A stretch of 64,000 bases of DNA from an uncultured Hormoscilla sp. (GCA_963921275.4 OZ001293.3:2656001-2720000), one strand, 5' to 3'; numbered from the stretch's first letter, positions 21,694-61,101 are shown. Made by a program: numbers and translations. Notes: a model not told the origin generated them from the letters alone.

Positions 21694-23081
21694 ACTGACT
21701 TTAGAACAGATTATCACACTAGTAATAGACGCTCTTGCTGAAAGTCTCGGTCCTGCGGGGATGGGGCGTTTTATGGAGCAGTTCGAGAAAGGGAGTGGAG
21801 ATTACACTCGCGATCGGGATAAATTTTTAGGCAATAGCACCCTTGAGGAAATTTTTGCCCAGATCCAACAGCGGCGACAACAGCAAACTGAAAATGCCAA
21901 TCGGACACCGTTCCGGAAAAATCTGACCCAATTCAAAAACGCGATCGATGTTCGCCAGCTAACTCTATCCCAGATTAGGGAATTGGGAATAGAAGTGCTG
22001 ACCTTGGCCCTTGGCCGATCGGGCATGGAGCGATTTCTGCAAAAATTAGAAATGGACAATGGTGATTATTACGGATGGGGTCGAGCCGGGAATCGCTTCC
22101 CGACCCTCCCTTGAGGAACCGGAATTGCGATTTTCACCGCATCCGGCTACTGGGTACTAGGCCCTTTTCATAGGTAGACTTAATAGGAATTACTTCCGTT
22201 AGCCCTTGCCGCCTGTCTTTTCTTCCCTTTCCTGGTTTAGCGAGTGGTTGTTCTGATAACCGTTAGTATCACCATTTTCAAGTCAGTTTTACCAGTTATC
22301 CATACCTTATCCTCCACTTGCGTTTCGGATTAGTTCCGTGGCTTTTTAGGATTACTCATTCCAGCAGCTTCCTAGTATCACCGACCCACGTCAGCGCTGG
22401 CTACCCAGCATCATCTACATTACTGTAGATGTTATCCCAGGAATTACCCCGGGCATTCGCTTCTTGGGCCATCCCTCCCCCCGTGGCTTGCGCTTAACAT
22501 CTAACTTGTCCTGATGGACAGCACACGAGAGGTTACTTCGTTCCCTAACAACATTTCGCGATACCTTTAGGTCCACACTATACCCCGGGAGCTATTTGAG
22601 TACTATATTAGCCAGAGTCTAAAACTAATACTAGCTACCATTTCCTTTTTAGGCCAGCGCATATAGCCTTATTTCGCTGGTTCCTTATAACGAGGCTTGC
22701 ACATGTTTGCCTGCTCTAACCTTGGATATCTTTCCTAGCGGCGTCACCGGCTTAGGCTGCCAGTTATCCTACATTTGAGTCCTCGCTTAGCACCACGATG
22801 ATGTCGCTTCGTAGCACCGAGGACCGGTGTCACCCCCGTACCTGGGGGGAGGGGAATTTAACCCCCATGCGGTCAGAGTTCCCGGCTAATAAAACCGGGC
22901 TAGCGTTCCGTGTTTGACCACGTTAGGCTAGAACGAATCGCACAGGCTCAATAAGGATAAATGGCTATCCAATCTTACCTTTGACCATATTCACGATCGC
23001 ATCGCCGCCCTGACAGCTACTACTCCCGCAAATCATTGCAATGAGATCGCAAATGAAGCCCATCAACAATCGCCTTTGTAA
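21677..23081 (+). pseudogene. Two-domain antitoxin-like gene interrupted by an antisense group II intron
   Basis: LG..GM.RF....GDY occurs twice; removing 22073-22943 gives GDYY-RLNKDKWLSNLTF to TAA at 23081, paralleling GDYTRDRDKFLGN. Confidence 0.75.
22073..22943 (-). mobile_element. ORF-less group II intron (family B, copy 1)
   Basis: Minus strand starts GTGCGATTCG; domain V AGCCGGATGCGGTGAAAATCGCAATTCCGGTTC; 871 nt; near-identical to 60231-61101. Confidence 0.92.
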
Positions 23082-23341
23082 ACTTTTGTAAAATTAGGTT
23101 AAAAGATTGTTCGGGAGAGATAGAGAGCATTATAATAGGAAAGAGTTGCGGGAAAATTTTCTGGGTAAGTTCAGTTTCAATTTCCGAAACTTATAAGGCG
23201 GTAGAGAAAAGCTAGGCTAGAATGAAGCAGAACTTAGAACCCTTGATGCTTGGCACGAGAACTGGCAATTTGCACCCGGGGACTCACTAAACAGTTCGAG
23301 CGCTGACGGTAAGCGATATGGACTTGGAAGTGAAAATGGGT
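22969..23341 (+). repeat. Diverged direct repeat of 24757-25141 with a decayed copy of the ABC gene start
   Basis: Continuous alignment from CCAATCTTACCTTTGACC to GACTTGGAAGTG.AAATGGGT. Confidence 0.92.
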
Positions 23342-23431
23342 AATGACATTGCTTTGTTTATGTAGCCGGATCCCTCGTTCCCAGGCAGCGCATCCTCTCC
23401 GCGCTGCCTGGGAACAGGTTCGGGCGGCTTT

Positions 23432-24094
23432 CTATGGCATAATTGGGGCACTCACAAGATCGCTCCAGGGCCCTGGCTTTCCTTTCGGGTTGACCCAGCG
23501 CAACCGGTAGTAGGCAATTTTGCGCGCATCTTCGCTATCAAATTTCGATATATAGGGAGTGCGGGTATCGAGGCCGAAAAATCTCAACTCATCTGTATTC
23601 GTCGGCGGTGCGTCCCCGATCTTCACCCAAACTTCTGCCCCCATGACACCAGCAGGTTTAGCCCGACGGTTAGGAGTGGTTTCGTCGAAGAAACGCAGCG
23701 TGTGACTCAAGGGTTTGCTGAGGGCGATAATCACGATAGGGCGCGTTGTGGGGGCGCTAATGGCAGTGCGGTGGCTTTCGGGGACGGTGATACCCAGGGC
23801 GGCACGGTGAGCGTTAGTAATGGTATCGCTAGCTTGCAGTTTGCGGACTTGGCGGCGGATCTCCTTTTCCCAGGCTTGGCGGTCTTCGTCTTTTTGCTGA
23901 CGCGCGCTTTGGGCCGCTGCTTGGGCGTTAAGATGGACTTCGTAGGAGGTTTCCCAGCCAGATTGAGTAGCGATGAGGGTGGTAATATCCTCGTTGCTGA
24001 CCTTAAGTTCGTCTTTATTAGTTTGCAAGTAGCTTCCGAAATTTATTTGCCAGTTATTGAAATCATTGTCAGAAGAAGGAATGTAGTCGGCCAT
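23432..24094 (-). CDS. Hypothetical protein, helical N-terminus and FN3-like C-terminus
   Basis: MADYIP..D.DF..W, LGITVP, KPAGV.GAEVW, YYRLRWVN..G..GPWS. Confidence 0.75.
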   Translation of the reverse strand: MADYIPSSDNDFNNWQINFGSYLQTNKDELKVSNEDITTLIATQSGWETSYEVHLNAQAAAQSARQQKDEDRQAWEKEIRRQVRKLQASDTITNAHRAALGITVPESHRTAISAPTTRPIVIIALSKPLSHTLRFFDETTPNRRAKPAGVMGAEVWVKIGDAPPTNTDELRFFGLDTRTPYISKFDSEDARKIAYYRLRWVNPKGKPGPWSDLVSAPIMP

Positions 24095-24164
24095 TGAGAT
24101 ATCCTGTTCGCGATTAATTTTGTAAAAGTACTGACCCTGATGCCAAGCCGTTGCTCTGGCGGGA

Positions 24165-24455
24165 CAAAATGTCGTCTCCAAAGGGCTTTCTCGCTTTTAG
24201 GCTTCGATGTCTCCGGAGAGTTCGATGTCTTTTGGGGCGAGATGTATCCTGGGAGCGCTAACCACACTACCCAGTATACCGCTCGCGTGTCTAATCGCAC
24301 TACCTCTCTGATCGTGGCGCTAGGACGATGTCTCTACCGGTAGTGCAACTACGATGTCTCGGGGGTTTCTCCGTGCGTCCGGGAGACGTCGAGTTCCCCC
24401 GAGACATCGAACTCCCCCGAGACATCGAACTTTCCCGGGGACACTCAGCGCGCAG
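24165..24455. repeat. Nest of hairpin micro-elements (CGATGTC...GACATCG; GCGCTA...CACTAC)
   Basis: Multiple interleaved arms and loop motifs. Confidence 0.75.
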
Positions 24456-24509
24456 ATCACGTCGAAGCCAAAGCGATGGCCCCTTAAGGATAGATATATT
24501 CTATCATGG

Positions 24510-24656
24510 AATAACTCAGTCATGCCTCTCTGTGACTGAGTTATTTTCTGGAGTGACTGAGTTATTCCTTGGAGTAATTGTTCAGTTCCTGAGGTGACCG
24601 TTTATTTCCTGGAGTAACTGAGTTATGCCACCGAGTACGAGAGTCATGCCCTGACG
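24510..24656. repeat. Degenerate 21-bp tandem repeat, about 7 copies (GTGACTGAGTTATTYYCTGGA)
   Basis: 21-nt periodicity read directly. Confidence 0.7.
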
Positions 24657-25045
24657 GCACAGATCTTTACCAAGGGTGAGATTCCTCACTCTCAGGCCGG
24701 AACAGTGCGAGTGCCGTGGCCAAGCCAGCCCCCAGCCCCCCAAAGCTTAGATGCGCCCAATCTTACCTTTGACCATATCCACGATCACATCGCCGCCCTG
24801 ACAGCTACTACTCCCGCAAATCATGGTAATGATATCACAAATGAAGCCAATAAACAATCGCGTTTGTAAAGTTTTGTAAAATTAGGTTAAAAGATTGTTC
24901 GGGAGAGATAGAGGGCATTATAATGGGAAAGAGTTGCGGGAAAATTTCCAAGTGGGTAAGTTCAGTTTCAATTTCCTAAACTTATGCCCACGGCGGTAGC
25001 GAAAAGCTAGGCTAGAATGAAGCAGAACTTAGAAGCATTGCAGCT

Positions 25046-25996
25046 ATGGCACGAGAACTGGCAATTTGCACCCGCGGACTCACTAAACAGTTCGATCGCC
25101 ACATTGCGGTCAACGATATGGACTTGGAAGTGGAAATGGGTGAGGTCTACGGCTTGATTGGACCCAATGGGGCGGGTAAAACTACCCTGATCCGCATGTT
25201 GGCAACTGCTGAAGACCCCACGACGGGGGAAATCTATATAAATGGCGATCGCCTGCTACGGGACCAAAGCAATCCGACTCTTAAGCGTCGCCTGGGCTAT
25301 CTCCCGGATGACTTTCCTCTATACGACGATCTCACGGTTTGGGACTACCTGGAATATTTTGCCCGTCTCTACCAACTGCGAGACCCCCGTCGCACTCAAC
25401 GGCTATATGAAGTTCTGGAACTGGTGCAGCTGACTAACAAACACCATAGCCCGATCGCGAGCCTCTCCCGGGGAATGAAACAGCGGCTTTCTCTGGCGAG
25501 AACCATTATCCACGAACCAATTCTGCTACTGCTAGATGAACCGGTCTCAGGCTTGGACCCGATCGCCCGGATGCAGTTTCGGGAAATCATCAAAACATTG
25601 CAGTCAGCGGGAATGACTATTCTGATTTCCTCTCACGTGCTCAGCGACTTGGCAGAACTCTGTACCTCTGTGGGTATAATGGAATTAGGTTTTCTGGTGG
25701 AAAGTGCATCACTCAAAGACCTTTACCAGCGTCTCAGCCGCCAGCAAATCCTCATGTCTACCCTAGAAAATACGGACGGCCTACTTGCGGAACTAAAAAA
25801 TCATCCGCAGGTTCAAGGGTGGGAACTGCTGCCTTCATATGGTCAAGTGCGGGTTGATTTTGCTGGAGATCGGGAAGAATGTGCGACGTTATTACGCGCG
25901 ATAGTTGCTGCTGGCATTCCCCTGACGGAATTCCACTGCACTCAAGAAGATTTGGAAACGATATTCCTGAAATTAGACCACAAACAAGCATCCTAG
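25046..25996 (+). CDS. ABC transporter ATP-binding protein (ABC-2 type)
   Basis: GPNGAGKT, LSRGMKQR, LLLDEP, SSH. Confidence 0.95.
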   Translation: MARELAICTRGLTKQFDRHIAVNDMDLEVEMGEVYGLIGPNGAGKTTLIRMLATAEDPTTGEIYINGDRLLRDQSNPTLKRRLGYLPDDFPLYDDLTVWDYLEYFARLYQLRDPRRTQRLYEVLELVQLTNKHHSPIASLSRGMKQRLSLARTIIHEPILLLLDEPVSGLDPIARMQFREIIKTLQSAGMTILISSHVLSDLAELCTSVGIMELGFLVESASLKDLYQRLSRQQILMSTLENTDGLLAELKNHPQVQGWELLPSYGQVRVDFAGDREECATLLRAIVAAGIPLTEFHCTQEDLETIFLKLDHKQAS

Positions 25997-26041
25997 TGTC
26001 AGGGAGCACTGGTACCACCAGTTATAAAGGATACAGGAAAA

Positions 26042-27739
26042 ATGACAATGAATTTGATTAACCAGTTGGGGGAATGGAATCCCCAGTTGTTCCGAGAAGT
26101 AAAAGGCAGGCTGAAAAGTCGTAATGGCGCGATCGCCCTGGGAGTTTCGGTTTTTAGCCAGTTGCTATTAGTCTTGGTTTTTGTGGAAAAACTGCCGGGT
26201 CGGGAAATCCAGCGTTCCGGAAAAATCGGACATAGATACTGCACGGGCGGTGTGGAGGCATTATCTGATTATGTGAAGTACCACCAATGCCTCATGGATG
26301 CCTTCGGCAATCCGGATATAAACTGGCAGTTGTGGTGGACAGATATCTTTATCTGGATGAGCGCGATCGGCATCTTCACTATGTTAATAGTGGGGACATA
26401 TATGCTGATCGGCGACCTGGACCAGGAAGAACGTCGCGGCACCTTGAACTTCATTCGCCTCAGTCCCCAGTCTACTCAAAGTATTTTGACTGGTAAACTG
26501 CTAGGGGTGCCGATTTGGCTCTATGTTGCCAGTATCCTGGCCATGCCATTGCATCTGTGGTCGGGAGTCGCGGCGCAGGTTCCTTTGAGTCTGATTTTTA
26601 CCTTCTACGGGGTAACTTTTGCCAGTTGCGTTTTCTTCTACAGTGCCGCGCTGCTGTTTGGTTTAGTCAATTCCTGGATGGGAGGGCTTCAAGCTTGGTT
26701 GGCCAGTGGGATGCTGCTCTTTTTTTTGACGGGCACAACTGCTATGCGGATTCCGGAAAACCCAATGGATCTGCTGAATTTACTTTCTCCCTCTACTCTG
26801 CTGGTCTATCTGGTTCCCGACCAGTTTGCAGAATATGTGGAGATTTTTGGTTACAGTGCTGAGACTCTACTGTCTGATTTACATGATTGGCTGTGGTTTC
26901 ACTTGCATATCGGTGCCAGTTCGGTTACGATCGCAGGGTTTATGGTGTTAAATTACGGCCTGTGGACAATCTGGATTTGGCAAGCCCTGAACCGTCGTTT
27001 CCACAATCCTAATAGTACCACCCTGAGTAAGGCCCATAGCTATTGGTTAGTGGGGGGCTTGGAAGTTTTGATGGTGGGATTTGCCCCCCTGTACGGTTCA
27101 CATAATGACTTTTCCGCAAGCTTGAGTTTATTACTGTTAGGGAATCTGTGGCTGTTTGCTGGTTTAATCGCAGCATTGTCACCCGGACGGCAAGCTTGTA
27201 TTGATTGGGCCCGTTACCGACATCAGTCAGGCGATCGCCGCAAGCATCTTTGGCAAGATTTGATGTGGGGTGAGAAAAGTCCGGCGGTAGTGGCGATCGC
27301 CCTTAACTTGCTCGAAGCTCATCTCATCCTATTACCCTGGGTTCTCCTGCACCAAAACTTAGACTACAAAATAGAGGCGATCGGTTATCTGCTTTTGAGC
27401 ATGTCTATCCTGATGCTATACGCTTCGATCGCCCAGCTGATGTTATTAATGAAAACGCAGAAACCGGGGCTGTGGGCAGCTAGCACCGTAGGGGCAGCAA
27501 TTTGCTTGCCACCATTTATGTTAGCGGTGCTGTCCATTTCCCCAGGAGAAAATAATCTGCTGTGGATGCTTACAGCCTTTCCCTGGGCGGCCTTTAAGTA
27601 CGCATCAGCCATGACAGTCGTTGTCTCCTTCGTCGGACAGTTAGGCGTCGCAGGCATGTTAAACTGGCAATTGACGCGGCAGCTTCGACTTGCTGGAGCA
27701 TCAGCATCCAAATCCCTCTCCCTAAAGCCCCAACCCTAA
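26042..27739 (+). CDS. ABC-2 type permease-like membrane protein
   Basis: WNPQLFRE.K, EERRGTLNFIRLSPQ, many TM segments. Confidence 0.85.
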   Translation: MTMNLINQLGEWNPQLFREVKGRLKSRNGAIALGVSVFSQLLLVLVFVEKLPGREIQRSGKIGHRYCTGGVEALSDYVKYHQCLMDAFGNPDINWQLWWTDIFIWMSAIGIFTMLIVGTYMLIGDLDQEERRGTLNFIRLSPQSTQSILTGKLLGVPIWLYVASILAMPLHLWSGVAAQVPLSLIFTFYGVTFASCVFFYSAALLFGLVNSWMGGLQAWLASGMLLFFLTGTTAMRIPENPMDLLNLLSPSTLLVYLVPDQFAEYVEIFGYSAETLLSDLHDWLWFHLHIGASSVTIAGFMVLNYGLWTIWIWQALNRRFHNPNSTTLSKAHSYWLVGGLEVLMVGFAPLYGSHNDFSASLSLLLLGNLWLFAGLIAALSPGRQACIDWARYRHQSGDRRKHLWQDLMWGEKSPAVVAIALNLLEAHLILLPWVLLHQNLDYKIEAIGYLLLSMSILMLYASIAQLMLLMKTQKPGLWAASTVGAAICLPPFMLAVLSISPGENNLLWMLTAFPWAAFKYASAMTVVVSFVGQLGVAGMLNWQLTRQLRLAGASASKSLSLKPQP

Positions 27740-27810
27740 AGGGTAGGGCTACAAGAACAAAGCCCGCCTGCGCGGGCTAGCTTCTCTGTAGGGTGGGCGG
27801 TGCCCACCGC
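27732..27810. repeat. REP-like element CCCTAAAGGG..GGCTAC...AAAGCCCGCCTGCGCGGGCT
   Basis: Also at 41471-41516, reversed at 12770-12815, degenerate at 52814-52850. Confidence 0.75.
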
Positions 27811-27871
27811 CTCTCTTTTCCTTCACAGAGTCAGAAAACGAGAGTACAAATATCAATTGAGGAAAGCGGTT

Positions 27872-29413
27872 ATGAACATACTTGTGCTAAATCAAATGAG
27901 CGAGTGGAATGCCCAGTTTTTTCGAGAAATCAAAGGGCGGCTCAAAACTCGATCGGTGATGATTGCAGTTTTGACATCTCTGCTGGGTCAAGCTATGTTA
28001 ATGATGGTTTGTTCCCAAAGCAAATGTCTCAGATATGCTGCTGACAGATCTTGTGCCCTGTATGACTGGCAGTTCCAGTGGTCGATCGCCTTCAGGTTTC
28101 TGGACTGGTGCCTACCCTTCATCCTGCTAGTTTGCGGTGTCTATCTGCTGATCGGAGATTTGGCGAAAGAGAGACGTCGCGGCACCCTGAATTTTATTCG
28201 TTTAAGTCCCCAGTCCAGCCAGAGCATTTTCCTAGGCAAACTGCTAGGAGTGCCTGTATTGGTGTATTTAGGAGTTGCTCTCGCAATTCCCTTGCACTTG
28301 GTGTCTGGCTTAGGATCTGGAAGGTCATTGATTGGGATTTTAGCTATCTATAGCCTTTGGACGGCTGGTTGTTGTCTGTTTTATACAACCGCTCTCCTGC
28401 TGACTTTCCTGGGTAATGCTGAATGGGGAGAACAATCTCCTGCTGGGGGTGGTGGCTTCTTGGCGAGTGTCCTGGCAATGCCTTACATCAGTCTAATTTA
28501 TGGTAGCTGGGATTTGTACAGTTCCAAATATCCCCCCGATTGGAAATGGTTCTTTTTGCCAATTGGCTCGGTGCCAATATTTGCCTATGGCTTGGCAATG
28601 GTGACCTTGGGAACGGCAAGTTACTGGATTTGGCAAGCCTTGAATCGTCGTTACCAGAATCCTAACAGTACCCTCTTGAGCAAACAGCAGAGTTATTGGC
28701 TAACGGCTAGCTTTCAAATTTTGCTTTTGGGGTTCTTTTGGCGAGAAATATCGGCCCATGCTGGCGTTCTCTACGGCCAGCTATTATTTGTCAGCATTGT
28801 GAATTTATTCGGGTTTTTGGCTCTAATAATGGCGCTTTCGCCTCACCGCCAAGCTTGCCTTGATTGGGCCCGTTATCGGCATCAGCAAGAGTATCGTCGT
28901 CCGCGTAGCGTGCGCGCAGCGCATTCTTTGCTACAGGATCTGATCTGGGGTGAAAAAAGTCCAGCCGTTCTGGCGATCGCGGTCAATATCGCCCTTACTG
29001 CTGCGATCTGGATGCCTTGGGTGCTGTTGTGGCCTGAAGGTGAGGAAAAGATGGCAGCAGTTGCGGGGATGTTGATCTGTGCTAATTTGATCTTGATTTA
29101 TGGGGCGATCGCGCAGTTAGTGCTATTGAGCAAATTACCGAAGCGGGCATCTCTCGCAACTAGCACGGTTTTCGCTAGTGTAGTATTACCACTTATTATT
29201 GCGGGCTCCTTGATGGAGAAAATAACTCCTATGTTCTTGATGTTTGCAGTTTTTTGCAGCGCATTTTGGGCTATAGGAGAAGCATCCGCGATCGGGATTT
29301 TGATGGCAATCTTGGGTCAATGGAGTATCCTGGGATTGTTGAACTTCCAACTGACGCGCCAGTTAAGAAAATTTGGAGAATCTCATTCCCAAGCGCTTCT
29401 CGCTGGAGGTTAA
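27872..29413 (+). CDS. ABC-2 type permease-like protein, paralog of the upstream gene
   Basis: Same motifs (GTLNFIRLSPQ, WGEKSPA); 21-nt in-frame insert at 28903-28923. Confidence 0.85.
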   Translation: MNILVLNQMSEWNAQFFREIKGRLKTRSVMIAVLTSLLGQAMLMMVCSQSKCLRYAADRSCALYDWQFQWSIAFRFLDWCLPFILLVCGVYLLIGDLAKERRRGTLNFIRLSPQSSQSIFLGKLLGVPVLVYLGVALAIPLHLVSGLGSGRSLIGILAIYSLWTAGCCLFYTTALLLTFLGNAEWGEQSPAGGGGFLASVLAMPYISLIYGSWDLYSSKYPPDWKWFFLPIGSVPIFAYGLAMVTLGTASYWIWQALNRRYQNPNSTLLSKQQSYWLTASFQILLLGFFWREISAHAGVLYGQLLFVSIVNLFGFLALIMALSPHRQACLDWARYRHQQEYRRPRSVRAAHSLLQDLIWGEKSPAVLAIAVNIALTAAIWMPWVLLWPEGEEKMAAVAGMLICANLILIYGAIAQLVLLSKLPKRASLATSTVFASVVLPLIIAGSLMEKITPMFLMFAVFCSAFWAIGEASAIGILMAILGQWSILGLLNFQLTRQLRKFGESHSQALLAGG

Positions 29414-29703
29414 GTTTGGTCTGGTTGTGAAAGTAGGGTGAGCACCTTTGTTAATGCACTAGCGACAAGATGCTGCAAATGAATGCATCTCAATCTCTCT
29501 CGCCCTTTACAAAAGTTTACATGGGGCCCCAGATATCTCTTTCGTTGGCTATAATCAGCAGAAAGTCTCGCTATTGAAGAGTAAGTGGAAGGCCAAATGC
29601 TAGATATCTCTTTCGTTGGCTATAATCAGGATAAGGTCTCGCTATTGAACGGCAATCTGGGCAGGCGATCGCCTGCTGCTTGTAGTATAAGGAGAAAATC
29701 ACC

Positions 29704-29967
29704 ATGCAGATCGCGATCAAACTTCCCTCGGACATAGTAAATCAACTACAATATGTCAACATTTCCCGCCGAATTTTAGAACTAATCGCAGCCGATCGCT
29801 ATCGGCAAGGTCATATTGGAGCTGCCGAAGTCCGGCGAATGCTCAATTTTTTCTCTCGTTGGGAAACTTATGAATTTCTTAAGCGTGAAAAAGTATACTT
29901 GCCATATACTGAAGAGGATTTAGAGCAGGATTCAGAAGCGATTCGCAACCTTTTAGGCACCGAATGA
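29704..29967 (+). CDS. UPF0175 family antitoxin
   Basis: LELIA...Y....I, SRWE...FL, Y.EEDLEQD. Confidence 0.8.
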   Translation: MQIAIKLPSDIVNQLQYVNISRRILELIAADRYRQGHIGAAEVRRMLNFFSRWETYEFLKREKVYLPYTEEDLEQDSEAIRNLLGTE

Positions 29968-30035
29968 TTATTGTATCCAACACTTCCCCTATTAACCACT
30001 TGATTTTGATTGGGAACATCCACTTGTTACCTGAA
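29964..30035 (+). pseudogene. 5' stub of DUF3368 PIN toxin
   Basis: MIIVSNTSPINHLILIGNIHLLPE overlapping the antitoxin stop, then lost. Confidence 0.75.
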
Positions 30036-30060
30036 CCCACTCTACTTGAGGAGATGTATT

Positions 30061-32382
30061 ATGACTAATGCTTTACCGGGAAAAAGAGAATTTTGGGGTA
30101 ATTTAGTCCAAGGTGTTAAGGCGATGGCGATATTGGCGCCGCGAACTTACATGACGGATGAAAATACGAAAACTGAATACCTCCGAGTCAAGGATTGCGA
30201 AAAGATCGAAAAGTTCTGCACGCAGATGAAGCAAGTAGAAATGCAGTTGCAGGTGTTGCAGCAGGAGAAAAACCTAGCGTTTCCAGCGGAACAAGGGGAG
30301 TTGAACCGCCAACTGCAAGGGGAACTCGCCCGACTCAACGACTTTCAAGCGGAACAAGAAGAGTTGAAGCGCCAATTGCAAGAAAAATACACCCCGCAAA
30401 AATACACCTACGGCGGCTATAAGCGAGATGAGGATGAGGATGAGTATTCATGGGAAGTAGGAATATTAAACCGCCAACTGCAAGAGGAACTCGCCCGACT
30501 TACCCGCGACTTTCAAGCTAACGAAGGTAAACTCAACCGCCAACACGCCCTTCAGATAGAACTTTTTCAGGAAAACTTGCAACAATCTCTGATCGCGCAA
30601 CAGAAGCAATTCTAATTAGAATGGAAACAAATGGATGCGGAACTGTACCTGGAACTGAGGAAAGGATACAGAAGAAGATATGAACCGAATAGTTCACCCC
30701 TTTGGTTATCTGCGGTAAATTTAATTGATGCCGATGCCGATACAAGAGACAGTTTTATGCTGGTATTACCCTCGCCTCCCGCCTTGCCTCACGACAGATC
30801 AAAAGCGGCGGGGGGGACGCGAGGGTTCCCAGAAATGGAGCGATTTTTGGGAAAAAGTTTGCGCAGTTTCTTTGAAAAGTATACTCAGAATGGGAGACAG
30901 ATCTGGTTTCTCGCGGGCGCTTGGAGGAGTAAAGGATTCCATAGCGAAGCTGCAACCAACGCGATTTTCTAAGACTTGTGTTCAGAACCGGTTCTGATTT
31001 TAGAGTCAGCAGTAGAAGGGGGAGATTTTAATTTAAATTTTGGTTACTGGGTAAATTGGCTGGACTATCGCTACGAAACAGCCATTTCTTTTCCTTGGCA
31101 AGAGGTGCTTTACGAGTTTGCGAAGATGCGGACTTGGCGTTGGAAGCAAAAGCGAGACGACTATATTGCCGCTGGCAAAGATCAAAGAAAATTTGACAAG
31201 CGCTATGGCCAGGAAGGCGTTGCCGGGTTTATGAAAAACCTAGAAATTATTGAATTAGAACGGGAATGTCTGGAGGAAGGAGAGGATCTGACGGAAATAG
31301 AACGACCTTACAGCGTTCATCAAAAGGATTACCAGAAATTGCAAGAGTTCATTGCCAACTGTCACTGCTTGTTTGCGGGGTTGCTGGCGGATGAATATTT
31401 CCTGCTGCACGTTCCCATTAATGACAGAAAACCGCCTTTGTTGCCGCAGTTACTCGCCGACTTGATCGAGGGAATGCCAGAACAGGAGTTGCAAAATCTG
31501 GTAGAATTGGTGGTAGCCTTCTACGAAACTCTCTATCAGGGGATCGGGGAGTTGGAGTCGGGTTGGGTTCCGGAACTGAAGTTGGATCTGGCGGCAAGTT
31601 TGCAGCACTTACCCCAGCAGTTTGGGGCGAAGCAACAGGTAGACGCATCGATGCAAGCGTGGTTGCAAAGGCGAGGAATGACTCCGGATGGGGATCTGTT
31701 GGCGCAGGTGGAGTCGGCGTTGACTGTTGCGGACCGGGAATATGTGGAGAAACTGAATCAATGTTTGCTATTCTTGGGTGAGGAACGTCAACTGAATGTG
31801 GCGAAGGCTTGCTACGATCGGGGGATACAGCGCTGCACCCGGGAAGAGTACGTGACAGCAATTGCCGATTTCGACCAGGTAATCGCACTCGAACACGAGT
31901 TGGTAGAAGCATATTACAATCGCGGGCTGGCTCGTGCTAAGGTAGAACGGCACGAAGAGGCAATTCAAGATTATACGGAAGTGTTGCAACTTCAGCCCAG
32001 TCGCGCCCAGGCTTATAATAATCGCGGCAATGCCTTTTATGAGTTGGGAAATTATGAGGAGGCGATCGCGGATTACGATAAAGCTGTAGAACTAGGTTTC
32101 TCCTCTGCTGAGAAAAACCGCGCGATCGCCCGAGCCGTGTTAGCAGAAGTCGAACGTAAAAAGCGGGAAGAGGAGGAACGCCGTCAACGGGAAGTAGAAG
32201 CGCGTCGCCAGCAGGAAGAAGAGGAACGTAAAAAGCGGGAAGTAGAAGCGCGTCGCCAGCAGGAAGAAGAGGAACGTAAAAAGCGGGAAGCAGAAGCGCG
32301 TCGCCAGCAGGAAGAAGAGGAACGTAAAAAGCGGGAACGTCGATCATATGGTGCATACTATGACCCGTTTAACTTGCTGTAA
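30061..32382 (+). pseudogene. Coiled-coil/TPR protein gene split by stops near 30615 and 30972
   Basis: Consecutive in-frame ORFs separated by stops; AYYNRG/AYNNRG TPRs; 60-bp repeat tail. Confidence 0.7.
32151..32340 (+). repeat. 60-bp coding tandem repeat (EARRQQEEEERKKRE)
   Basis: Read directly from the sequence. Confidence 0.7.
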
Positions 32383-41476: not shown

Positions 41477-41574
41477 AGGGTGCGGCTACACAAACAAAGC
41501 CCGCCTGCGCGGGCTATAATAACCTCGTTCCCACTGGCGACCCCTGGGAACGGGATGCTAGAGGTTCTGCCTCA

Positions 41575-50561: not shown

Positions 50562-50919
50562 AATTCATCCTGAATCTTTTTTCTGACTGACCTGGGAGTT
50601 GCGTTCCCAGAACACTCCTTGATTATAACCTGGCCTGGTTCGATCTGAGTGACGAAGATGCTAATTTTTTTTCCGCCCAGCAGCAGGAAGTTGGATCCAT
50701 TTCCATGCCGACATCGAGTCTCCCCAGCTTTTTGGCGACGGTTGTCCCGTCGATGTCCGACGGGTAGTGCGAGTAGACACGCGAGCGGTCTCTTGGGTAG
50801 TGCGAGTAGCGCGGCCTTCGCGAGACACCTCACCGGGAGGCATCGAGCGCCCGTCGGACATCGAAACCCAGTCAGGGGTCGAAAAAGGGTAAGGTGGGCA
50901 GTACACACCCTACAGGTTG

Positions 50920-52665: not shown

Positions 52666-52762
52666 GTTTGTTGTTGCGCTTTAGCGTTTATTGGTGAATG
52701 GCTGGACATCTACCATCTTACCACTAAGATAAAGGTCATTTAATATCAAGTCGCCACCACCT

Positions 52763-52984
52763 TCTGTGTCCCCCGGGAGCGCTAAAAGCACTACCCGGGA
52801 GAGACAGACCTCACCCTAAAGGGCAAGACTTACCTTCGCCTGGCGGGCTAGATGACAAAATGGAGATGTCCCTGGCATTTAATATAAAGTAGGGTGGACA
52901 TTGCCTAGGCTGTTGATTTTGGTCATTTTTCGGCTCTGTCGGTGTCCCCTGGGAGCGCTAAAAGCACTACCCAGGGGACACCGA
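52763..52984 (+). repeat. Two intergenic 46-nt hairpin elements (52763-52808, 52939-52984)
   Basis: Loop AGCGCTAAAAGCACTA flanked by inverted arms. Confidence 0.85.
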
Positions 52985-53885
52985 TCCCTCACTCCGGGAG
53001 CGTGGGATGGCGCGATCGCCTACAATTCATATAGAGCAATCGATCCACGGTCTCATAACCTTACACAAAAACTGCATGAAGTTTTTTCTGGGGCCATCGA
53101 AGTTCAAGTGTGAACAGCCTACGTGTCACCCGATCCCGGGGCTTCGCCCGACCTTCGAGCGCTAATCAAGTAACTATCGATCCAGAGAACATCTCGACAA
53201 GAGATTGATTTTTTAGCATCTACAAATTTTCTACCTCAGATCCCTAGCAGCTATCAAACAAAAAATTTAAAAGCGTTCCACCGGAGAATAATTAAGGATT
53301 GCAGAATAGGCATTCGATATCCCCCAGAGGGGACGCTCGATGTCTCCGGAGAGCTCGCGCGCTATTCGCACTGCGCATCGCACATCGCGGAGACATCGTA
53401 TTCGCACTACCCCAGAGATATCGAGGCCAGAACTAGAGATAGAATTAAAATTTTCAAGTACCTATTCCGTAATTACCGGAACAACATAGATTAGAAGCTG
53501 AGAAGAAAGCGCGGTTAACCTATGTGATGACATTGCTGCGACGCGGTGTCTCCCGGGGACAGCTCCCAGGAGACACCGCGAAGATATAGCAAGCCGTGCA
53601 GGAGTTGTGCAACCCGTAATTGATAAAAATATTATCCCGTAATGGTTTCAGGGGCGATCCCCCTGACCTGTTGACACAAATGATTTAGGCTAGCTATACT
53701 ATCACTATAGTTCCTCTCTTCAAATCGCCCCGGGCTTGACAAGTAAGGAGTAAAAAGCTACCAACTCTCTTGAGCAACCATTTGAGGATAAGGCTGAATA
53801 GGTAACGTTAAGAGATAAATAACCGGGTCGCTCGATGTCTCGGGGACATCGTACTCGCACTACCCACGAGACGGCTAGTTTTTAA

Positions 53886-54545
53886 TTACTTTCTTTGATT
53901 TTTTCGGGATCTTTTCTTGGATTTTCTTTGTCTCTTTGACATCAAAAACATAAAAACGGCAAAATTGTTCCGTTAGTAACTCATCATTGGCATTATAAAA
54001 TCTATACCACTTATTAACATAATATCCCTCTTATTCGATTTTCCGATCGTAAAAAATCTCATCTTTTATTTCCTTCTTATAATTAGTATGGACTCCCTGA
54101 ATCTACAATACCAATAGTCCATTTTAATCTAACATACCCTGTAGCTTGGCCAGCAACTGTTCGTTTTTTTCTCTAGCGGTAATGTGACTAGCAATCCTAT
54201 ACTCACCTTCTTCCTATACCACACATATTACACCTCCCGTTGAAACGTTCGCCTCAAACTTATCCTCTGTTTCAAATTCAGTAATATCTTCACAAATAAA
54301 TTTTACATCTGAAGAAGCTTTTCTTCGCAATTTCCAGCATTTCAGGAGAAAAATAGACACCAACAATCATTTGCCAGTGAGAGCATTTTTTCCGTAAGTA
54401 GTCCAGTTCCTACACCAATATCTAAAACTTTCCTTCTACCACCGAGCAAGTTATACAAAGTCTTGCTAAGTGCCTCAAAGTCAAAGTATCCGCTTATCAA
54501 TAGGTTGTCATAATATTTTACTATCTCAACGTACTCGTTAATCAT
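53886..54545 (-). pseudogene. Class I SAM methyltransferase, frameshifted
   Basis: VLDIGVGTG motif I; low-GC coding-like DNA continues in other frames. Confidence 0.7.
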
Positions 54546-54753
54546 AAGCTTGTCCTTATCACTTACAATGGTTCAAAACCAACGGCTTTTGAACCGGTAA
54601 ATTTCTGACTTAGACCAAGTCCAGCAGACCTTCTCAAGCTCAACTTCAACTAAAGTTCGGAAGTTATATTCGAGCAAGCCTGGCCAATAATAGCCGCCCT
54701 CCCAATCCTTGTAAGTGATTTAAATCACATTAATAGTGTGACTCTATATACCT

Positions 54754-54880
54754 GAGCCGAGGTCGAGCCGAGGTCGAGCCGAGGTCGAGCCGAGATCGAG
54801 CCGAGATCGAGCTGAGGTCGAGCCAGACCCTCGCCCGAGTCGAGCCATTAGCGAGCCCTAGGCGAGCCGTAGTCGAGCGA
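54754..54880. repeat. 11-bp tandem array (GAGCCGAGGTC), about 11 units degrading rightwards
   Basis: Read directly from the sequence. Confidence 0.9.
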
Positions 54881-55179
54881 TACCCTCCCCTAATGTATCC
54901 AAACGGAGCCGAGTAGAGGGGCATTAGAGCGCGTGCTAAAGCCACATCCTCACCGTACCCTCCCTACCATATATATAACCTCGCCCATGCCGCTGGGGCG
55001 ACAACCGGCACCCCATCCCCCCAAAGGAGTTCCGAGTTCTCTGTTATCAAAATTGCCAAAAATATCAGATAACATCAACCTGTCATAGCGAGACATTCAT
55101 GTAATGATATCAAGATATAGTTCGCCATAGATAAGCGATCGCAATATACAATCAACCTATCAGCATTTACCATAATTCC

Positions 55180-57516
55180 ATGACAACCACCGTACCCTTC
55201 TCCCCCGAAGAAATAGCCGCCGAAGGACTCACATTATCAGAATACGAAGAAATAGTCAAGCGCTTGGGGCGTCATCCCAACAAAGCCGAACTAGGAATGT
55301 TCGGCGTTATGTGGTCGGAACATTGCTGCTACAAGAACTCCAGACCTCTACTCAAGCAGTTTCCCACCACAGGCGATCGGGTACTGGTCGGTCCCGGAGA
55401 AAACGCTGGCGTTGTAGACCTAGGGGACGGACTGCGACTGGCATTTAAGATAGAATCCCACAATCACCCCTCAGCCATAGAACCCTTTCAAGGAGCCGCC
55501 ACAGGCGTAGGCGGCATCCTCAGAGATATCTTTACAATGGGAGCACGCCCGATCGCCCTATTAAACTCCCTGCGCTTCGGTTCCCTAGCAGAGGCCAAAA
55601 CCCGCAGGCTATTCACAGGCGTGGTAGCGGGAATAGCCAGTTACGGTAATTCCGTAGGAGTACCCACAGTAGGGGGCGAAGTCTACTTCGATCCAGCTTA
55701 CTCCGACAATCTCCTGGTTAACGTCATGGCCTTGGGATTAATGGAAACCCCAGAAATAGTGAAATCTGGCGCATCTGGTATCGGCAACCCCGTACTCTAC
55801 GTCGGTTCCACCACCGGACGAGATGGCATGGGCGGTGCTAGCTTTGCCAGTGCCGAACTGACAGATAAATCAGCAGACGATCGCCCCGCCGTACAAGTAG
55901 GGGATCCATTTCTGGAAAAATCCCTCATCGAAGCCTGTCTGGAAGCCTATCATACCGGGGCCGTAGTTGCCGCCCAGGACATGGGAGCAGCTGGCATCAC
56001 CTGTTCCACCTCAGAAATGGCAGCCAAAGGCAATGTCGGCATCGAACTAGACTTAGATAAAATCCCCGTGCGCGAAACAGGCATGGTCCCCTATGAATAT
56101 CTGCTCTCAGAATCACAAGAACGGATGCTATTTGTCGCCCGCCAAGGCCGGGAACGAGAATTAATTGACATTTTCCATCGCTGGGGACTCCATGCCGTCG
56201 TTGCCGGCACAGTCATTTCCGAGCCCATAGTGAGAATTTTATTCCAAGGTGAGATCGCAGCAGAAGTCCCTACATCGGCCTTAGCAGACAATACCCCCAT
56301 TTACGAGCGATCGCTAATCAAAGAACCCCCAGAGTACGCGCAAGCAGCTTGGAAATGGTCGGCGAACAGTCTGCCAACACCAACAGATACCAGCATAGAA
56401 GTTAAGGGAAAGTTTCAGACCTGGAATGAAATTCTGCTCACCCTGCTCTCTACCAGCACCATAGCCTCAAAACGCTGGGTCTATCGCCAATACGACCATC
56501 AAGTGCAGAACAATACAGTCATTTTACCCGGTGGAGCCGATGCTGCTGTCATGCGATTGCGTCCTCAGAACTCCTCCGGAAGCGATTGGCAACGGGGAAT
56601 AGCCGCTACCGTAGATTGTAATAGTCGTTACGTCTATCTCGACCCCTATGAAGGAGCCAAAGCCGTAGTCGCCGAAGCCGCCAGAAACCTCAGCTGTGTC
56701 GGGGCCGAACCTCTAGCAGTCACGGATAATCTGAATTTCGGCAGTCCCGAAAAACCCGTCGGATACTGGCAGCTAGCAGAAGCCTGTCGCGGCATAGCCG
56801 CAGCCTGTCGCGAACTCTCTACCCCCGTGACTGGTGGGAACGTGTCTCTTTACAACGAAACTCTCGACGCCGACGGCAAACCCCAAGCAATTTATCCGAC
56901 TCCAGTTATCGGCATGGTGGGATTAATCCCCGATCTGACCCAGATTTGCGGTCAAGCTTGGCAAGCTGAGGGGGATTTAATTTATCTCCTGGGAGTGGCC
57001 GTACCCAACCAGATCATCAATTTGGGGGCTTCTGAGTACCTAGCAACCATTCATAATGTGGTTGCTGGCAAACCCCCTGCCATAAATTTTGACTTGGAAC
57101 TGCGAGTGCAAGCCGCTTGTCGCGAAGGCATTCATCAAGGTTGGGTAAAATCGGCCCACGATGCTGCTGAAGGCGGGATCGCGATCGCCCTAGCCGAGTC
57201 CTGCATCAGCGGACAGTTCGGGGCTAAAATTAACCTGGGCTTAAACAATTTACTGCCCGGATGGCGTTGGGACGAACTGCTCTTTGGCGAAGGCGGATCC
57301 CGCATCATCCTTTCAGTGCGGTCAGATGATGCTTCAATTTGGGAATCCTATTTAAGGGAGCAGCTAGGTTCTGATTGGCAAAAGCTAGGAGTAGTTACCG
57401 GTGCCGACCAGCCTTTACAGATTTTAACAGCAGATGGGGTTTGTGTAATCGACCTTAAGGTCAAAGACATGGGCGATCGCTACCACAACGCCATCTCACG
57501 CCAACTCCATCCCTAG
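55180..57516 (+). CDS. purL: Phosphoribosylformylglycinamidine synthase subunit PurL
   Basis: [37 protein letters not shown]. Confidence 0.98.
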
Positions 57517-57703
57517 CCTTCCCCTTCTTCATCGGAATTTTACGCTACCCTGAAGAAGGGGATAGTTAAGAAAAGCTTAAAATTAGGATCTCAATTATCT
57601 TTCCCCGTTCGCGCAGCGACTGCCCTGCGATGCCTGGAGGGTAGTGCGAATAGCGCACCCTCCAGGCATCGAGTATCGCCCAATACCGGAGCAAAGTTGT
57701 AGA

Positions 57704-59209
57704 ATGATTGCCAACCATTCCCCCCACGCAGAAGCATCCGACCCTGAGAACAGTAGCGCGACTATAGTCGCGCACTTCGTATCAAACAAGGATAAACCAC
57801 AAGAAGCCTGTGGTGTTTTTGGCATCTACGCCCCAGAGGAAAAAGTTGCCAAACTCGCCTACTTCGGTCTGTATGCCCTACAGCACCGGGGCCAGGAGTC
57901 AGCAGGGATTGCCACCTTCTCGGGAGAAACAGTGCATATCCACAAACATATGGGGCTAGTGTCTCAGGTGTTTAACGAAACTATTCTTAGCCAACTGACT
58001 GGTAGTATAGCTGTAGGTCACGTCCGTTACTCCACCACAGGTTCTTCCCATCTTGCCAATGCCCAGCCAGTTGTAGTAGAAACTCGCTTGGGCTCCCTGA
58101 CGTTAGCACATAACGGGAATATTGTCAATACCAGAGAACTGCGCCAAAAGTTAGAACAGCGCAACTGTAACTTGCTCGCCACCACCGACTCAGAAATGAT
58201 TGCCCACGCGATCGCCTCAGAGGTCAACAGCGGCAAAGAATGGTTAGAAGGAGCTATCAGTGCCTTTGGCAGCTGCCAGGGAGCTTTTAGCTTAGTCATC
58301 GGCACCCCAGCGGGGTTAATGGGAGTGCGCGATCCCAACGGCATTCGTCCCCTGGTAATTGGCATCTTGGAAAATCATCCCCACCGCTACGTACTCGCCT
58401 CGGAAACCTGTGGTCTAGAGATCATTGGAGCCGAATATCTGCGGGATGTCGAACCCGGAGAATTAGTCTGGATTACAGAAGCTGGACTGGCCTCCTTCCA
58501 CTGGACTGGCAAGCCAGATCGAAAGCTCTGTATCTTTGAGATGATTTACTTTGGCCGTCCCGATAGCGTCATGGAAGGTGAAAGCCTCTATAGCTACCGG
58601 ATGCGACTGGGGTGTTATCTAGCCCAAGAAGCCCCTGCTGATGTAGATCTGGTCATCGGCGTTCCCGACTCGGGTATCCCAGCAGCCATTGGCTTTTCCC
58701 AAGAATCTGGCATTCCCTACGCCGAAGGTTTAATCAAAAATCGTTACGTAGGTCGTACCTTCATCCAGCCAACTCAGAAAATGCGGGAAACTGGCATCCG
58801 CATGAAGCTCAACCCCCTCAAAGATGTTCTGGCTGGAAAACGGATCGCGATCGTCGATGACTCGATCGTTCGGGGCAATACCAGTCGCCTCCTGGTCAAA
58901 GCCCTCCGAGAAGCTAGGGCCAAAGAAGTCCACATGCGAGTTTCATCGCCGCCAGTGACTCATCCCTGCTTTTATGGCATCGACACCGACTCTCAAGACC
59001 AGCTGATTGCTGCGACCAAGTCTACAGAACAGATCGAAAGGCAACTTGGCGTTGACTCCCTAGCTTATCTCAACTGGAAAGGAATGCTCAAAGCCACAGG
59101 AGAAGACCCGAATAGCTTCTGTTCTGCCTGCTTCACCGGAGATTACCCGATTACCATACCAGAACCCCTCAAACAGTCCAAGTTAATGCTGGAGACCGTT
59201 AGCCGTTAA
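57704..59209 (+). CDS. purF: Amidophosphoribosyltransferase
   Basis: E.CGVFG, LQHRGQE, GHVRYST, VDDSIVRG, PCFYGID. Confidence 0.97.
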   Translation: MIANHSPHAEASDPENSSATIVAHFVSNKDKPQEACGVFGIYAPEEKVAKLAYFGLYALQHRGQESAGIATFSGETVHIHKHMGLVSQVFNETILSQLTGSIAVGHVRYSTTGSSHLANAQPVVVETRLGSLTLAHNGNIVNTRELRQKLEQRNCNLLATTDSEMIAHAIASEVNSGKEWLEGAISAFGSCQGAFSLVIGTPAGLMGVRDPNGIRPLVIGILENHPHRYVLASETCGLEIIGAEYLRDVEPGELVWITEAGLASFHWTGKPDRKLCIFEMIYFGRPDSVMEGESLYSYRMRLGCYLAQEAPADVDLVIGVPDSGIPAAIGFSQESGIPYAEGLIKNRYVGRTFIQPTQKMRETGIRMKLNPLKDVLAGKRIAIVDDSIVRGNTSRLLVKALREARAKEVHMRVSSPPVTHPCFYGIDTDSQDQLIAATKSTEQIERQLGVDSLAYLNWKGMLKATGEDPNSFCSACFTGDYPITIPEPLKQSKLMLETVSR

Positions 59210-59864
59210 TATCTAGCTGCATCGGACCGAGGTACTTGCTCAAGTAAGGGGAAAAAACCTCATAAATTAGAGTGAGGGGGCGTCCATGATGCCAAAACAG
59301 GTAGTGACGCCCCCAAAACGGTCCTCGCTGTCCAAAAGCACAGTCTAAGGCCGGTTCCTGACCATAGTAAATTCCTTGAACATCTCGATATAACTCGGTC
59401 CGCAGGCGAGCCAGACTTGCCCAAATAGGCAAAGATCGATTCTGCAAATACTCATCTACATGGCTGGCTTCCCACCAAGAAGTAGCATAGGCCAACCGCT
59501 GTCCAGAAGCGGTTCGCAGCCACACTTGACGCCGAAGTCGTGGCCCGGGAACTCTGTGAATTTGCACGGGAGCACCATCTGCATCCATACCAATATGAGA
59601 CATATCGATCACGTCCACCTCAGTTGGTTCGCCCGTGAGCAGTTGCAGGTGGCGTGTCGGGGAACCATCTCCCAGCAGCAGCATTTGCCATGCCGGTGCT
59701 AGCTGGCTATGAGGCAATCCTTGCTGAACGATTTCCTCTCCCCCCTGCCAAAGGGGTGTCAGAGCATGCCATGGGGTGGTTCGATGTCCCTCGGGAGCGC
59801 TAAAAGCACTACCCGAGGGACATCGAAGCGTGACTTGATTGCTGGGTCTAATAATGAAGTACAA
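59199..59864 (-). CDS. Chorismate pyruvate-lyase (DUF98/Ycf21-like); start uncertain
   Basis: LLGDGSPTRHL, RRQVWL, LAYA.SWW, WGRHY, IYEVFSP. Confidence 0.85.
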   Translation of the reverse strand: MYFIIRPSNQVTLRCPSGSAFSAPEGHRTTPWHALTPLWQGGEEIVQQGLPHSQLAPAWQMLLLGDGSPTRHLQLLTGEPTEVDVIDMSHIGMDADGAPVQIHRVPGPRLRRQVWLRTASGQRLAYATSWWEASHVDEYLQNRSLPIWASLARLRTELYRDVQGIYYGQEPALDCAFGQRGPFWGRHYLFWHHGRPLTLIYEVFSPYLSKYLGPMQLDING

Positions 59865-60017
59865 GAGTTCTTTACATAACTTTACCTTCTATTTCATGAT
59901 AACAATCTTGGCTAATTCACTTTGCTGATCAGAATATATTTGGGCTGCACTCGATCTGCACCAGAGCCACCTCTGACCAAAAAGACAGAGGTCACTACTC
60001 CTGGGCCAATTAAAAAA

Positions 60018-60099
60018 TGCGGATGGCGAGACTCGAACTCGCAAGGCTTGCGCCACACGCCCCTCAAACGTGCGCGTATACCAATTCCGCCACATCCGC
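60018..60099 (-). tRNA. tRNA-Leu(GAG)
   Basis: GCGGATGTGGCGGAATTGG...TTGAGGG anticodon loop, long variable arm, GTTCGAGTC T loop; TTGACA-N17-TCTAAT upstream. Confidence 0.95.
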
Positions 60100-60230
60100 T
60101 TGATGTCCCTTGATAGGCATTAGAAACTAGAATATCATGCCTGTCAAGGGATTAAGGGGGAGATAACTAATCTGACTCCCATCTGCGAGATCGAGGGTAA
60201 TCAGTCTATTATACTCTCTACAAGCATAAT

Positions 60231-61101
60231 GGATGGGGTCGAGCCGGGAATCGCTTCCCGACCCTCCCTTTCGGAACCGGACTTGCGATTTTCACCGCAT
60301 CCGGCTACTGGGTACTAGGCCCTTTTCATAGGTAGACTTAATAGGAATTACTTCCGTTAGCCCTTGCCGCCTGTCTTTTCTTCCCTTTCCTGGTTTAGCG
60401 AGTGGTTGTTCTGATAACCGTTAGTATCACCATTTTCAAGTCAGTTTTACCAGTTATCCATACCTTATCCTCCACTTGCGTTTCGGATTAGTTCCGTGGC
60501 TTTTTAGGATTACTCATTCCAGCAGCTTCCTAGTATCACCGACCCACGTCAGCGCTGGCTACCCAGCATCATCTACATTACTGTAGATGTTATCCCAGGA
60601 ATTACCCCGGGCATTCGCTTCTTGGGCCATCCCTCCCCCCGTGGCTTGCGCTTAACATCTAACTTGTCCTGATGGACAGCACACGAGAGGTTACTTCGTT
60701 CCCTAACAACATTTCGCGATACCTTTAGGTCCACACTATACCCCGGGAGCTATTTGAGTACTATATTAGCCAGAGTCTAAAACTAATACTAGCTACCATT
60801 TCCTTTTTAGGCCAGCGCATATAGCCTTATTTCGCTGGTTCCTTATAACGAGGCTTGCACATGTTTGCCTGCTCTAACCTTGGATATCTTTCCTAGCGGC
60901 GTCACCGGCTTAGGCTGCCAGTTATCCTACATTTGAGTCCTCGCTTAGCACCACGATGATGTCGCTTCGTAGCACCGAGGACCGGTGTCACCCCCGTACC
61001 TGGGGGGAGGGGAATTTAACCCCCATGCGGTCAGAGTTCCCGGCTAATGAAACCGGGCTAGCGTTCCGTGTTTGACCACGTTAGGCTAGAACGAATCGCA
61101 C
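60231..61101 (-). mobile_element. ORF-less group II intron (family B, copy 2)
   Basis: 871 nt; about four substitutions versus 22073-22943 seen by eye. Confidence 0.92.

Follow-up and report, generated by a model that had tools for sequence, protein, structure and literature searches.

Group II introns without an open reading frame, abundant in an uncultured Hormoscilla sp., end beyond the conventional 3′ position at the DNA level

The region analysed here, hereafter the window, is a 64,000-nt stretch of DNA from an uncultured Hormoscilla sp. (GCA_963921275.4 OZ001293.3:2656001-2720000). It harbours two 871-nt minus-strand elements, copy 1 (22073-22943) and copy 2 (60231-61101), which are two copies of one group II intron devoid of a long open reading frame (ORF), reading 5′ GUGCGAUUCG ... 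GGCUCGACCCCAUCC 3′. The two copies differ at four intron positions (53, 820, 830 and 831) and neither contains a reverse transcriptase (RT) ORF, the longest ORF within copy 1 being 53 aa, so that the original prediction, made from the sequence alone, of two near-identical ORF-less copies stands. The 871-nt unit likewise lacks the RT/maturase in domain IV that characterizes autonomously mobile introns. Copy 1 is inserted antisense in a plus-strand ORF and displays two private changes, C53U and G820U, the latter within domain V; copy 2 belongs to a 20-copy subfamily with GA at intron positions 830-831.

Group II introns are believed to select their 3′ splice site by means of a short, fixed spacing to the branch helix and a small number of tertiary pairs, and the same is assumed, by analogy, for the spliceosome. 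The primary source of the rule placing this site 6-7 nt after the branch point is reportedly Michel et al. (1989). Canonical introns are described as running from 5′ GUGYG to AY 3′ (Y, pyrimidine; Zimmerly and Semper 2015, PMC4424553), and the distance from branchpoint to 3′ splice site is given as 6 or 7 nt (PMC4748821). For the two window copies, it had been proposed that the CC following an apparently ordinary AU lies inside the intron.

Both copies belong to a family, F0, of which the 7.03-Mb host genome contains 139 full-length copies at 97% identity or above. At the 5′ end, 138 of these begin with GTGCGATT and one with GTGTGATT, in agreement with GUGYG. At the 3′ end, 138 finish with ATCC and one with ATTC; the copies thus do not diverge right after AT. 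Exactly 871 nt are found in 123 copies, 61 of them identical to the consensus and 28 one change away; this, together with the absence of both window insertions from three congeners, bears out the recent mobilisation that had been suggested.

In these three congeners (G002, G003 and G004), the DNA is uninterrupted at both window insertion sites. At the copy-1 site, GATTATTAC is directly followed by AGGGTCAATAAGG or AGACTCAATAAGG; at the copy-2 site, ATAAT is directly followed by AGACTGATTA or AGATTGATTA. No intron is present at either site, nor does either empty site possess an extra GG (CC on the intron strand). The junction GDYY-RLNKDKWL postulated for the host ORF of copy 1 is thus exact, and an internal repeat of the same ORF (GSGDYTRDRDKFL versus DNGDYY-RLNKDKWL) agrees with it. 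Similarly, the 15-bp inverted repeat said to be split by copy 2 is real, its left arm (60198-60212) pairing with 60226-60230 plus 61102-61111, and is intact in the congeners.

The same boundary emerged from paralogous empty sites, i.e. uninterrupted paralogues at 88% identity or above, which were found for 29 of the 120 distinct F0 sites. The junction is free of gaps at 28 of these 29 sites when CC is counted as intronic, and at none of 24 when CC is counted as exonic. When the boundary was slid from -2 to +2 family by family, clean junctions were obtained at shift 0 (F0, 31/34; F1, hereafter family A, 9/11; F2, 3/3; F3, 2/3; F4, 2/2; F5-F21, 4/4), and every other shift (-2, -1, +1, +2) yielded no clean site in any family. 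A canonical AC end for family A, with the boundary between C and U of its terminal GACU, was considered and rejected, as shift -1 is clean at 0/11 sites. Moreover, F0 copies inserted within F0 itself (target ...UAUUAAGUCU followed by ACCUAUG...) delimit an unambiguous unit, GUGCG...CCCCAUCC.

Host reading frames tell the same story. With ORFs of 100 aa or more required on each side of the junction, frames are regained at 21 of the 120 distinct F0 sites after removal of 871, 868 or 874 nt, and at 0-1 of them after removal of 869, 870, 872 or 873 nt. In a MscS-family gene split in the sense orientation (G000:C1:10308-11178), the PF21088 match stops 9 aa short of the junction and the PF00924 match continues on residue 2, from its profile position 12; the two Pfam matches (9 + 1 + 1 = 11) join seamlessly after removal of 871 nt only. 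Contigs assembled from four DNA runs break at this locus at the last C of the intron, one of them continuing into a different flank, and none of these contigs skips the intron. A response-regulator gene (C1:3509430-3510300) is another host interrupted in sense.

Orthologous and paralogous empty sites, reading frames and the covariation described below establish that the mobile unit includes its final CC, as had been claimed. The conventional alternative is an intron ending after AU, the CC being the start of the 3′ exon, conserved through target recognition. Such an end is the one at which the Rfam model of domains V and VI (RF00029) stops, its distance to the branch A being that of the consensus, and CC does follow AU in all but one of the 139 copies. 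Nevertheless, the congeners lack CC at both window sites, no paralogous site fits an exonic CC, removal of 869 nt regains ORFs at one site only as against 21 for 871 nt, and sister families possess GA or UA where F0 has AU. At the DNA level this alternative is refuted, and we give it next to no credence.

Does the end after CC have a functional meaning beyond that of a DNA boundary? A target logo was built from 100 independent F0 sites. The six positions of the 5′-exon motif facing exon-binding site 1 (EBS1), i.e. intron-binding site 1 (IBS1; GAGUCU), are conserved in 89, 63, 74, 78, 73 and 89 sites, respectively, and IBS2 is also visible. The logo is complementary to AGACUC (intron 324-329) and AAGGUUA (221-227), as expected of EBS1-IBS1 and EBS2-IBS2 pairing. 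The first base past CC is A in 79 sites and G in 11, and the positions beyond are random.

In IIB introns, EBS3-IBS3 and gamma-gamma′ are the pairs that fix the 3′ splice site. Covariation was examined in 27 representatives of the 22 clusters of related elements, 14 of which have at least two copies. In 26 of the 27 (14/14 multi-copy), intron position 364 can form a Watson-Crick pair with exon position +1, with U-A, A-U and G-C all seen, compared with 5-15/27 for the positions adjacent to +1. Intron position 470, in the motif GGGAG[G/A]GAUGG, complements the final base of the intron in 24/27 (13/14 multi-copy; neighbouring positions 0-11/27), being G in C-ending families and A in U-ending families. 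The first of these pairs would correspond to EBS3-IBS3 of group IIB, and the second to the gamma-gamma′ pair of group II introns. One switch was observed inside a single cluster (F2) of this set. As for the penultimate intron base, no alignment column reached 85% complementarity. Since both tertiary pairs sit at the shifted position, the end after CC appears to be functional.

One could still imagine that the DNA unit is 871 nt long while most transcripts splice elsewhere, F0 after AU and family A after GAC, the CC end being used only by the rare molecules that retrohome, or that the copies no longer splice at all. Family A does offer an AY-like AC at -3/-2, as F0 offers AU at -4/-3, and ORF-disrupting insertions are as often antisense as sense (26 and 22, respectively). 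An engineered IIC intron with a single extra nt separating the branch from the 3′ site is described as having nearly lost exon ligation, and a IIC construct with one base pair added as yielding virtually undetectable ligated exons (PMC4748821). Yet both candidate pairs follow the shifted site and not these alternatives, none of the 139 copies lacks the last 1-2 nt, and every host gene interrupted in sense would be frameshifted. Furthermore, reverse splicing is splicing run backwards, the inserted unit being the excised RNA. Splicing predominantly at another site, or a general loss of splicing, thus seems to us very unlikely.

The shape of domain VI gives the size of the shift. Minimum free energy (MFE) folds of five families predict a 10-bp upper helix capped by a GNRA loop, an internal loop in which an A of the 5′ strand faces GA on the 3′ strand, a 3-bp GGG/CCC basal helix and an unpaired tail of 5 nt. 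In the last 13 nt, the sole A besides that at -3 or -4 is the A of GACCCC at -9 (A863 in copy 1, where the other A is at -4), and it is followed by 8 nt. The predicted spacing is accordingly 8 nt in all families, outside the range of 6 or 7 nt. Nor is AY the rule, the ends being CC in F0 and CU in family A, with AU confined to families with a UAAU tail; the last base is always a pyrimidine. Family A, which ends with CUCGACCCCGACU, has its A of GACCCC followed by 8 nt as well, and thus shows the spacing that had been ascribed to it. Three types of 3′ end can be compared: ...CUCGACCCC plus 4 nt in the ORF-less lineage, 8 nt after the predicted branch A; ...GGCUUAGUUUAAU in RT-bearing introns of the same genome, 7 nt after it; and ...GCUACCCGAC in TeI3c and TeI4c of Thermosynechococcus, 6 nt after it (supplement alignment, PMC2882425). 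The shift is thus of two nucleotides relative to the Rfam consensus and Thermosynechococcus, and of only one relative to the co-resident RT-bearing introns; the folds locate the extra 1-2 nt in the single-stranded tail.

It may be asked whether A863 is the branch point at all. Indeed, it is designated by an MFE fold in which an A opposite GA forms an internal loop instead of a clean single bulge, and introns without a functional branchpoint are described as excised in linear form and as encoding no RT (PMC4748821). Were the boundary right and the reaction to proceed by hydrolysis or from another branch, the 8-nt spacer would carry no mechanistic meaning. This scenario is confronted with the invariance of CUCGACCCC across the 22 clusters and in congeners, and with the lack of any further A within 13 nt of the end save that at -3 or -4. 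In addition, a lariat is required for efficient retrohoming, and the lineage has given rise to 259 or more complete copies, a good many of which are identical. We therefore regard hydrolysis or branching elsewhere than at A863 as improbable.

The shifted end is not restricted to F0. With the 871-nt unit as query, 331 related 3′ ends were retrieved from the genome, and all 331 consist of CTCGACCCC plus 4 conserved nt, after which the flanks diverge. These related ORF-less families share CUCGA-CCCC followed by 4 nt, with ends in CC, CU or AU; the tails are AUCC (144 ends), GACU (family A and others), GACC, UAAU and AGCU. Complete ORF-less elements number at least 259, in 22 clusters. In three public records of Hormoscilla sp. 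metagenome-assembled genomes (MAGs), all 62 of the matches listed are pyrimidine-ended and diverge after the fourth base (GACC, 26; TAAC, 16; ATCC, 6; plus nine rarer tails). A strict domain V-VI pattern, searched in 401 genomes of the order, was detected in four of the five genomes of the window's genus (257 matches in the host genome, then 75, 53, 39 and 0), and in none of the 396 other genomes, which represent 141 other genera. Thus, the 3′ end is supported as a trait of a lineage and no quirk of two copies, and the lineage with a shifted end that had been conjectured appears, at the DNA level, to exist. F0 is one very young family in this genus-restricted ORF-less lineage.

Taken together with 75 maturase-domain hits, these introns exceed the largest published per-genome counts that we found, those of Arthrospira platensis, given as 101 in one source (PMC8919778) and as ‘at least 150’ in another (PMC2853384). 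The RT-bearing introns of the genome end canonically (...UUAGUUUAAU): 60 of the 75 maturase hits are followed by a ...TTAGTTTAAY end, and for 11 of the 75 no recognisable end lies within 3.5 kb. The RT-bearing parent whose search had been recommended did not come to light, as none of the 75 hits is associated with the shifted domain VI. Four apparent cases were discarded, each being a nested ORF-less intron behind its own 5′ GTGCGA. The RT-bearing ends are sometimes found 871 or 1742 nt farther than usual, which fits one or two nested F0 copies.

Among these RT-bearing introns, the 592-aa ORF at locus L009 has its closest relationship to the T.el4h maturase/RT (PDB 6ME0, chain C; E = 1.4e-113, residues 6-557); it also matches TIGR04416 (356 bits), has an HNH-type match at 498-560, and thus qualifies as an intron-encoded protein of the T.el4h type, IIB1 (CL1). 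By analogy, the co-resident RT-bearing introns probably supply the RT, mobilisation in trans of ORF-less introns by T.el4h-type RTs being documented in Thermosynechococcus elongatus (PMC2882425).

We propose that these elements are non-autonomous group IIB-type introns, which would spread by reverse splicing of their RNA into DNA, at sites picked by EBS1, EBS2 and EBS3 base pairing as the target logos show, the RT being provided in trans by the T.el4h-like introns. The 3′ splice site would lie 4 nt past the invariant CUCGA-CCCC of domain VI, and two pairs located at the shifted position would determine the cut: gamma-gamma′, between a J2/3 base and the base that closes the intron, and EBS3-IBS3, between U364 and the base that opens the 3′ exon. 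The excised RNA would end in CC, CU or AU depending on the family, 8 nt after A863, the only branch A available (-9) and the presumed branch point. Forward splicing would use the same site as the DNA boundary: because the excised RNA is the inserted unit, the F0 lariat should end in CC. Reverse splicing would account for a logo guided by the EBS, for a unit of exactly 871 nt, and for the tandem arrays and the twintrons of F0 in F0. The arrays would arise when an intron homes again into a site already occupied, the G1 of the resident copy forming a G-U pair with EBS3; G is the second commonest +1 base in the logo. Taken as a whole, an ORF-less IIB lineage with a shifted 3′ site, mobilised in trans, is in our opinion very probably the correct explanation.

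Several points weigh against it. One of the 29 paralogous empty sites is gapped. The EBS3 pair is broken in one of the 27 representatives and the gamma pair in three (one mis-delimited single copy and two beside an alignment insertion); furthermore, the representatives are related, and the covariation counts therefore exceed the number of independent events. The basal helix of domain VI is invariant, hence devoid of covariation support, its four Cs permit a register slip of one C, and both this helix and the branch A come from the MFE fold alone. In F0, AU at -4/-3 matches the Rfam consensus end, and a minor or cryptic splice after AU may occur. A search for sequencing runs retrieved no RNA run containing the sequence, a result that carries no information on expression; the splice junction and branch point are accordingly deduced from DNA. 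As sense insertions in ORFs are not commoner than antisense ones, selection for accurate splicing is not evident. Lastly, G820U of copy 1 (window 22124) breaks a pair at the top of the domain V lower stem; this copy may be catalytically impaired and has perhaps lost splicing.

A bolder interpretation, which we put forward only tentatively, is that in this lineage both steps of splicing, and its reversal, proceed with an 8-nt spacer and without a penultimate A, the 3′ site being fixed by gamma-gamma′ and EBS3-IBS3 only, irrespective of how far away domain VI lies. The modified domain VI with its tail, which would have arisen in the ORF-less lineage only, might then be an adaptation to non-autonomous life (e.g. 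to the use of a helper RT, or to lariat release versus exon ligation).

The mechanism itself is already known from IIB retroelements. The nearest counterparts are TeI3 (ORF-less) and TeI4 (RT-bearing) of T. elongatus, for which our source is Mohr, Ghanem and Lambowitz 2010 (PMC2882425). In what is reported there, as here, cyanobacterial IIB-type introns have proliferated in one genome, most copies are ORF-less and mobilised in trans (a step that is conjectural in Hormoscilla), families differ by retargeted EBS, and A is preferred at -15/-14. The copy number is approximately 10 times higher in Hormoscilla (at least 259 complete ORF-less elements versus 27 copies; PMC2853384). TeI3c and TeI4c are shown ending in ...GCTACCCGAC, i.e. 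with AC, 6 nt after A (PMC2882425), as against 8 nt and mostly CC or CU in the Hormoscilla lineage. Unlike TeI3/TeI4, the ORF-less and RT-bearing introns of Hormoscilla differ in domain VI type: the latter have a similar domain V and are frequent targets of F0 insertion, but their basal helix is of 4 bp and their tail of 3 nt, and they end in AU, 7 nt after A.

Another precedent is offered by class B introns with a domain VII, such as B.c.I4 of Bacillus cereus (3′ extension described by Stabell et al. 2007, PMC1865049), which are likewise reported to splice past the position predicted from domain VI and AY (PMC1865049, PMC4424553). There, the shift is given as 50-70 nt and is brought about by an added structured domain (PMC4424553), whereas here it would be 1-2 nt in a single-stranded tail devoid of extra structure. 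With respect to the canonical RF00029, the lineage shares the AGC triad and GAAA loop of domain V, the GNRA loop and unpaired 3′-strand A of domain VI, and ACCCC after the branch A, but it has two extra nucleotides past ACCCC+NN. It departs from the AY rule by a penultimate C in the two large families, the last base still being a pyrimidine.

A literature search retrieved no paper combining ‘Hormoscilla’ and ‘intron’, and on altered group II 3′ ends nothing came up besides engineered constructs and the domain VII extension. What seems to be new, judging from the genomic sequences, is a natural and very prolific ORF-less lineage with a 3′ site outside the 6-7-nt rule, mostly without AY, living beside canonical helpers. 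Hundreds of precisely bounded recent insertions, together with canonical relatives in the same genome, constitute a comparative system for asking which constraint determines the cut.

On the practical side, RF00029 misplaces the 3′ boundary by 2 to 29 nt, in both directions. On copy 2 (46.4 bits, for a gathering score of 40), the model stops at AU (60233), 2 nt short. Copy 1, with its domain V mutation G820U, falls below the gathering score. On the family A copy (47.0 bits), the match (13925-14032) inserts 29 nt and extends to 14032 for an ACCCAAU end, while empty sites place the true end at 14003. Owing to such errors, automated annotation of the genus will mis-join host genes. The features of the window are listed in table 1.

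Table 1. Intron copies, their parts and the interrupted host features, in window coordinates.
Feature	Position	Strand	Remarks
Copy 1, family F0 (‘family B’), 871 nt	22073..22943	-	5′ GUGCG at 22943, 3′ ...CUCGACCCCAUCC at 22073
Copy 2, family F0, 871 nt	60231..61101	-	Intergenic, within one arm of a 15-bp hairpin
3′ tail AUCC of copy 1	22073..22076	-	Last C = putative gamma′; 3′ splice site would follow directly
Rfam-predicted AU end, copy 1	22075-22076	-	
Predicted branch adenosine (intron 863)	22081	-	8 nt after it; MFE fold and sequence
Candidate EBS3 (intron U364)	22580	-	Pairs with first exon base past the proposed end; covariation 26/27
Candidate gamma (intron G470, in GGGAG[G]GAUGG between domains II and III)	22474	-	Pairs with last intron base; 24/27
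EBS1 AGACUC (intron 324-329)	22615..22620	-	Complement of 5′-exon consensus GAGUCU at -6..-1
EBS2 AAGGUUA (intron 221-227)	22717..22723	-	Complement of 5′-exon consensus around -15..-10
Host ORF of copy 1, 5′ part	21677..22072	+	No Pfam family; ends ...DNGDYY
Host ORF of copy 1, 3′ part	22944..23081	+	RLNKDKWL... to stop; in frame only after 871-nt removal
Hairpin split by copy 2	60198..60230		Left arm 60198-60212, loop 60213-60225, right arm start 60226-60230
Hairpin split by copy 2, remaining right arm	61102-61111		Hairpin intact in congeners
Family A (F1) ORF-less intron, 835 nt	13169..14003	+	Third intron in window; ends CUCGACCCCGACU

Elsewhere in the genome, F0 forms spacer-free head-to-tail arrays of two and three copies (G000:C1:824934-826675 and C1:5447656-5450268; ...CAUCC directly followed by GUGCG...). 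F0 is also nested in F0 after intron position 768, at G000:C1:1325884-1327625 and five similar places, where the target is ...UAUUAAGUCU followed by A; the family thus contains a near-cognate target for its own insertion. In nine or more RT-bearing introns, an antisense F0 copy separates the maturase domain from domain V (distance 1354 versus 483 nt; examples at G000:C1 1059481-1060992, 1148036-1149623 and 3651011-3652598), and in two further ones a distance of approximately 2225 nt fits two nested F0 copies. The flanks of these F0-bearing introns recur, so that either a composite element was copied or one site was hit repeatedly.

Around copy 2, a tRNA-Leu(GAG) gene (60018-60099) lies 131 nt downstream on the same strand (gap 60100-60230). 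A promoter-like sequence, TTGACA-17-TCTAAT, was read by eye between the two and suggests that the tRNA has its own promoter, without co-transcription with copy 2. In G004 (L113, G004:C1:17120-20503), where the copy-2 site is empty, unrelated DNA breaks the homology 19 nt further on; this region seems to have been repeatedly struck by insertions. Finally, two isolated 24-nt matches to Rfam CRISPR-DR28 occur in the window (27756-27779 and 41493-41516), and as they lie 13.7 kb apart they do not constitute an array. The same palindromic motif (...AACAAAGCCCGCCTGC...), with tens of paralogues, flanks several F0 insertions elsewhere and looks like a dispersed repeat resembling repetitive extragenic palindromes (REP-like) that is a favoured target of the intron.

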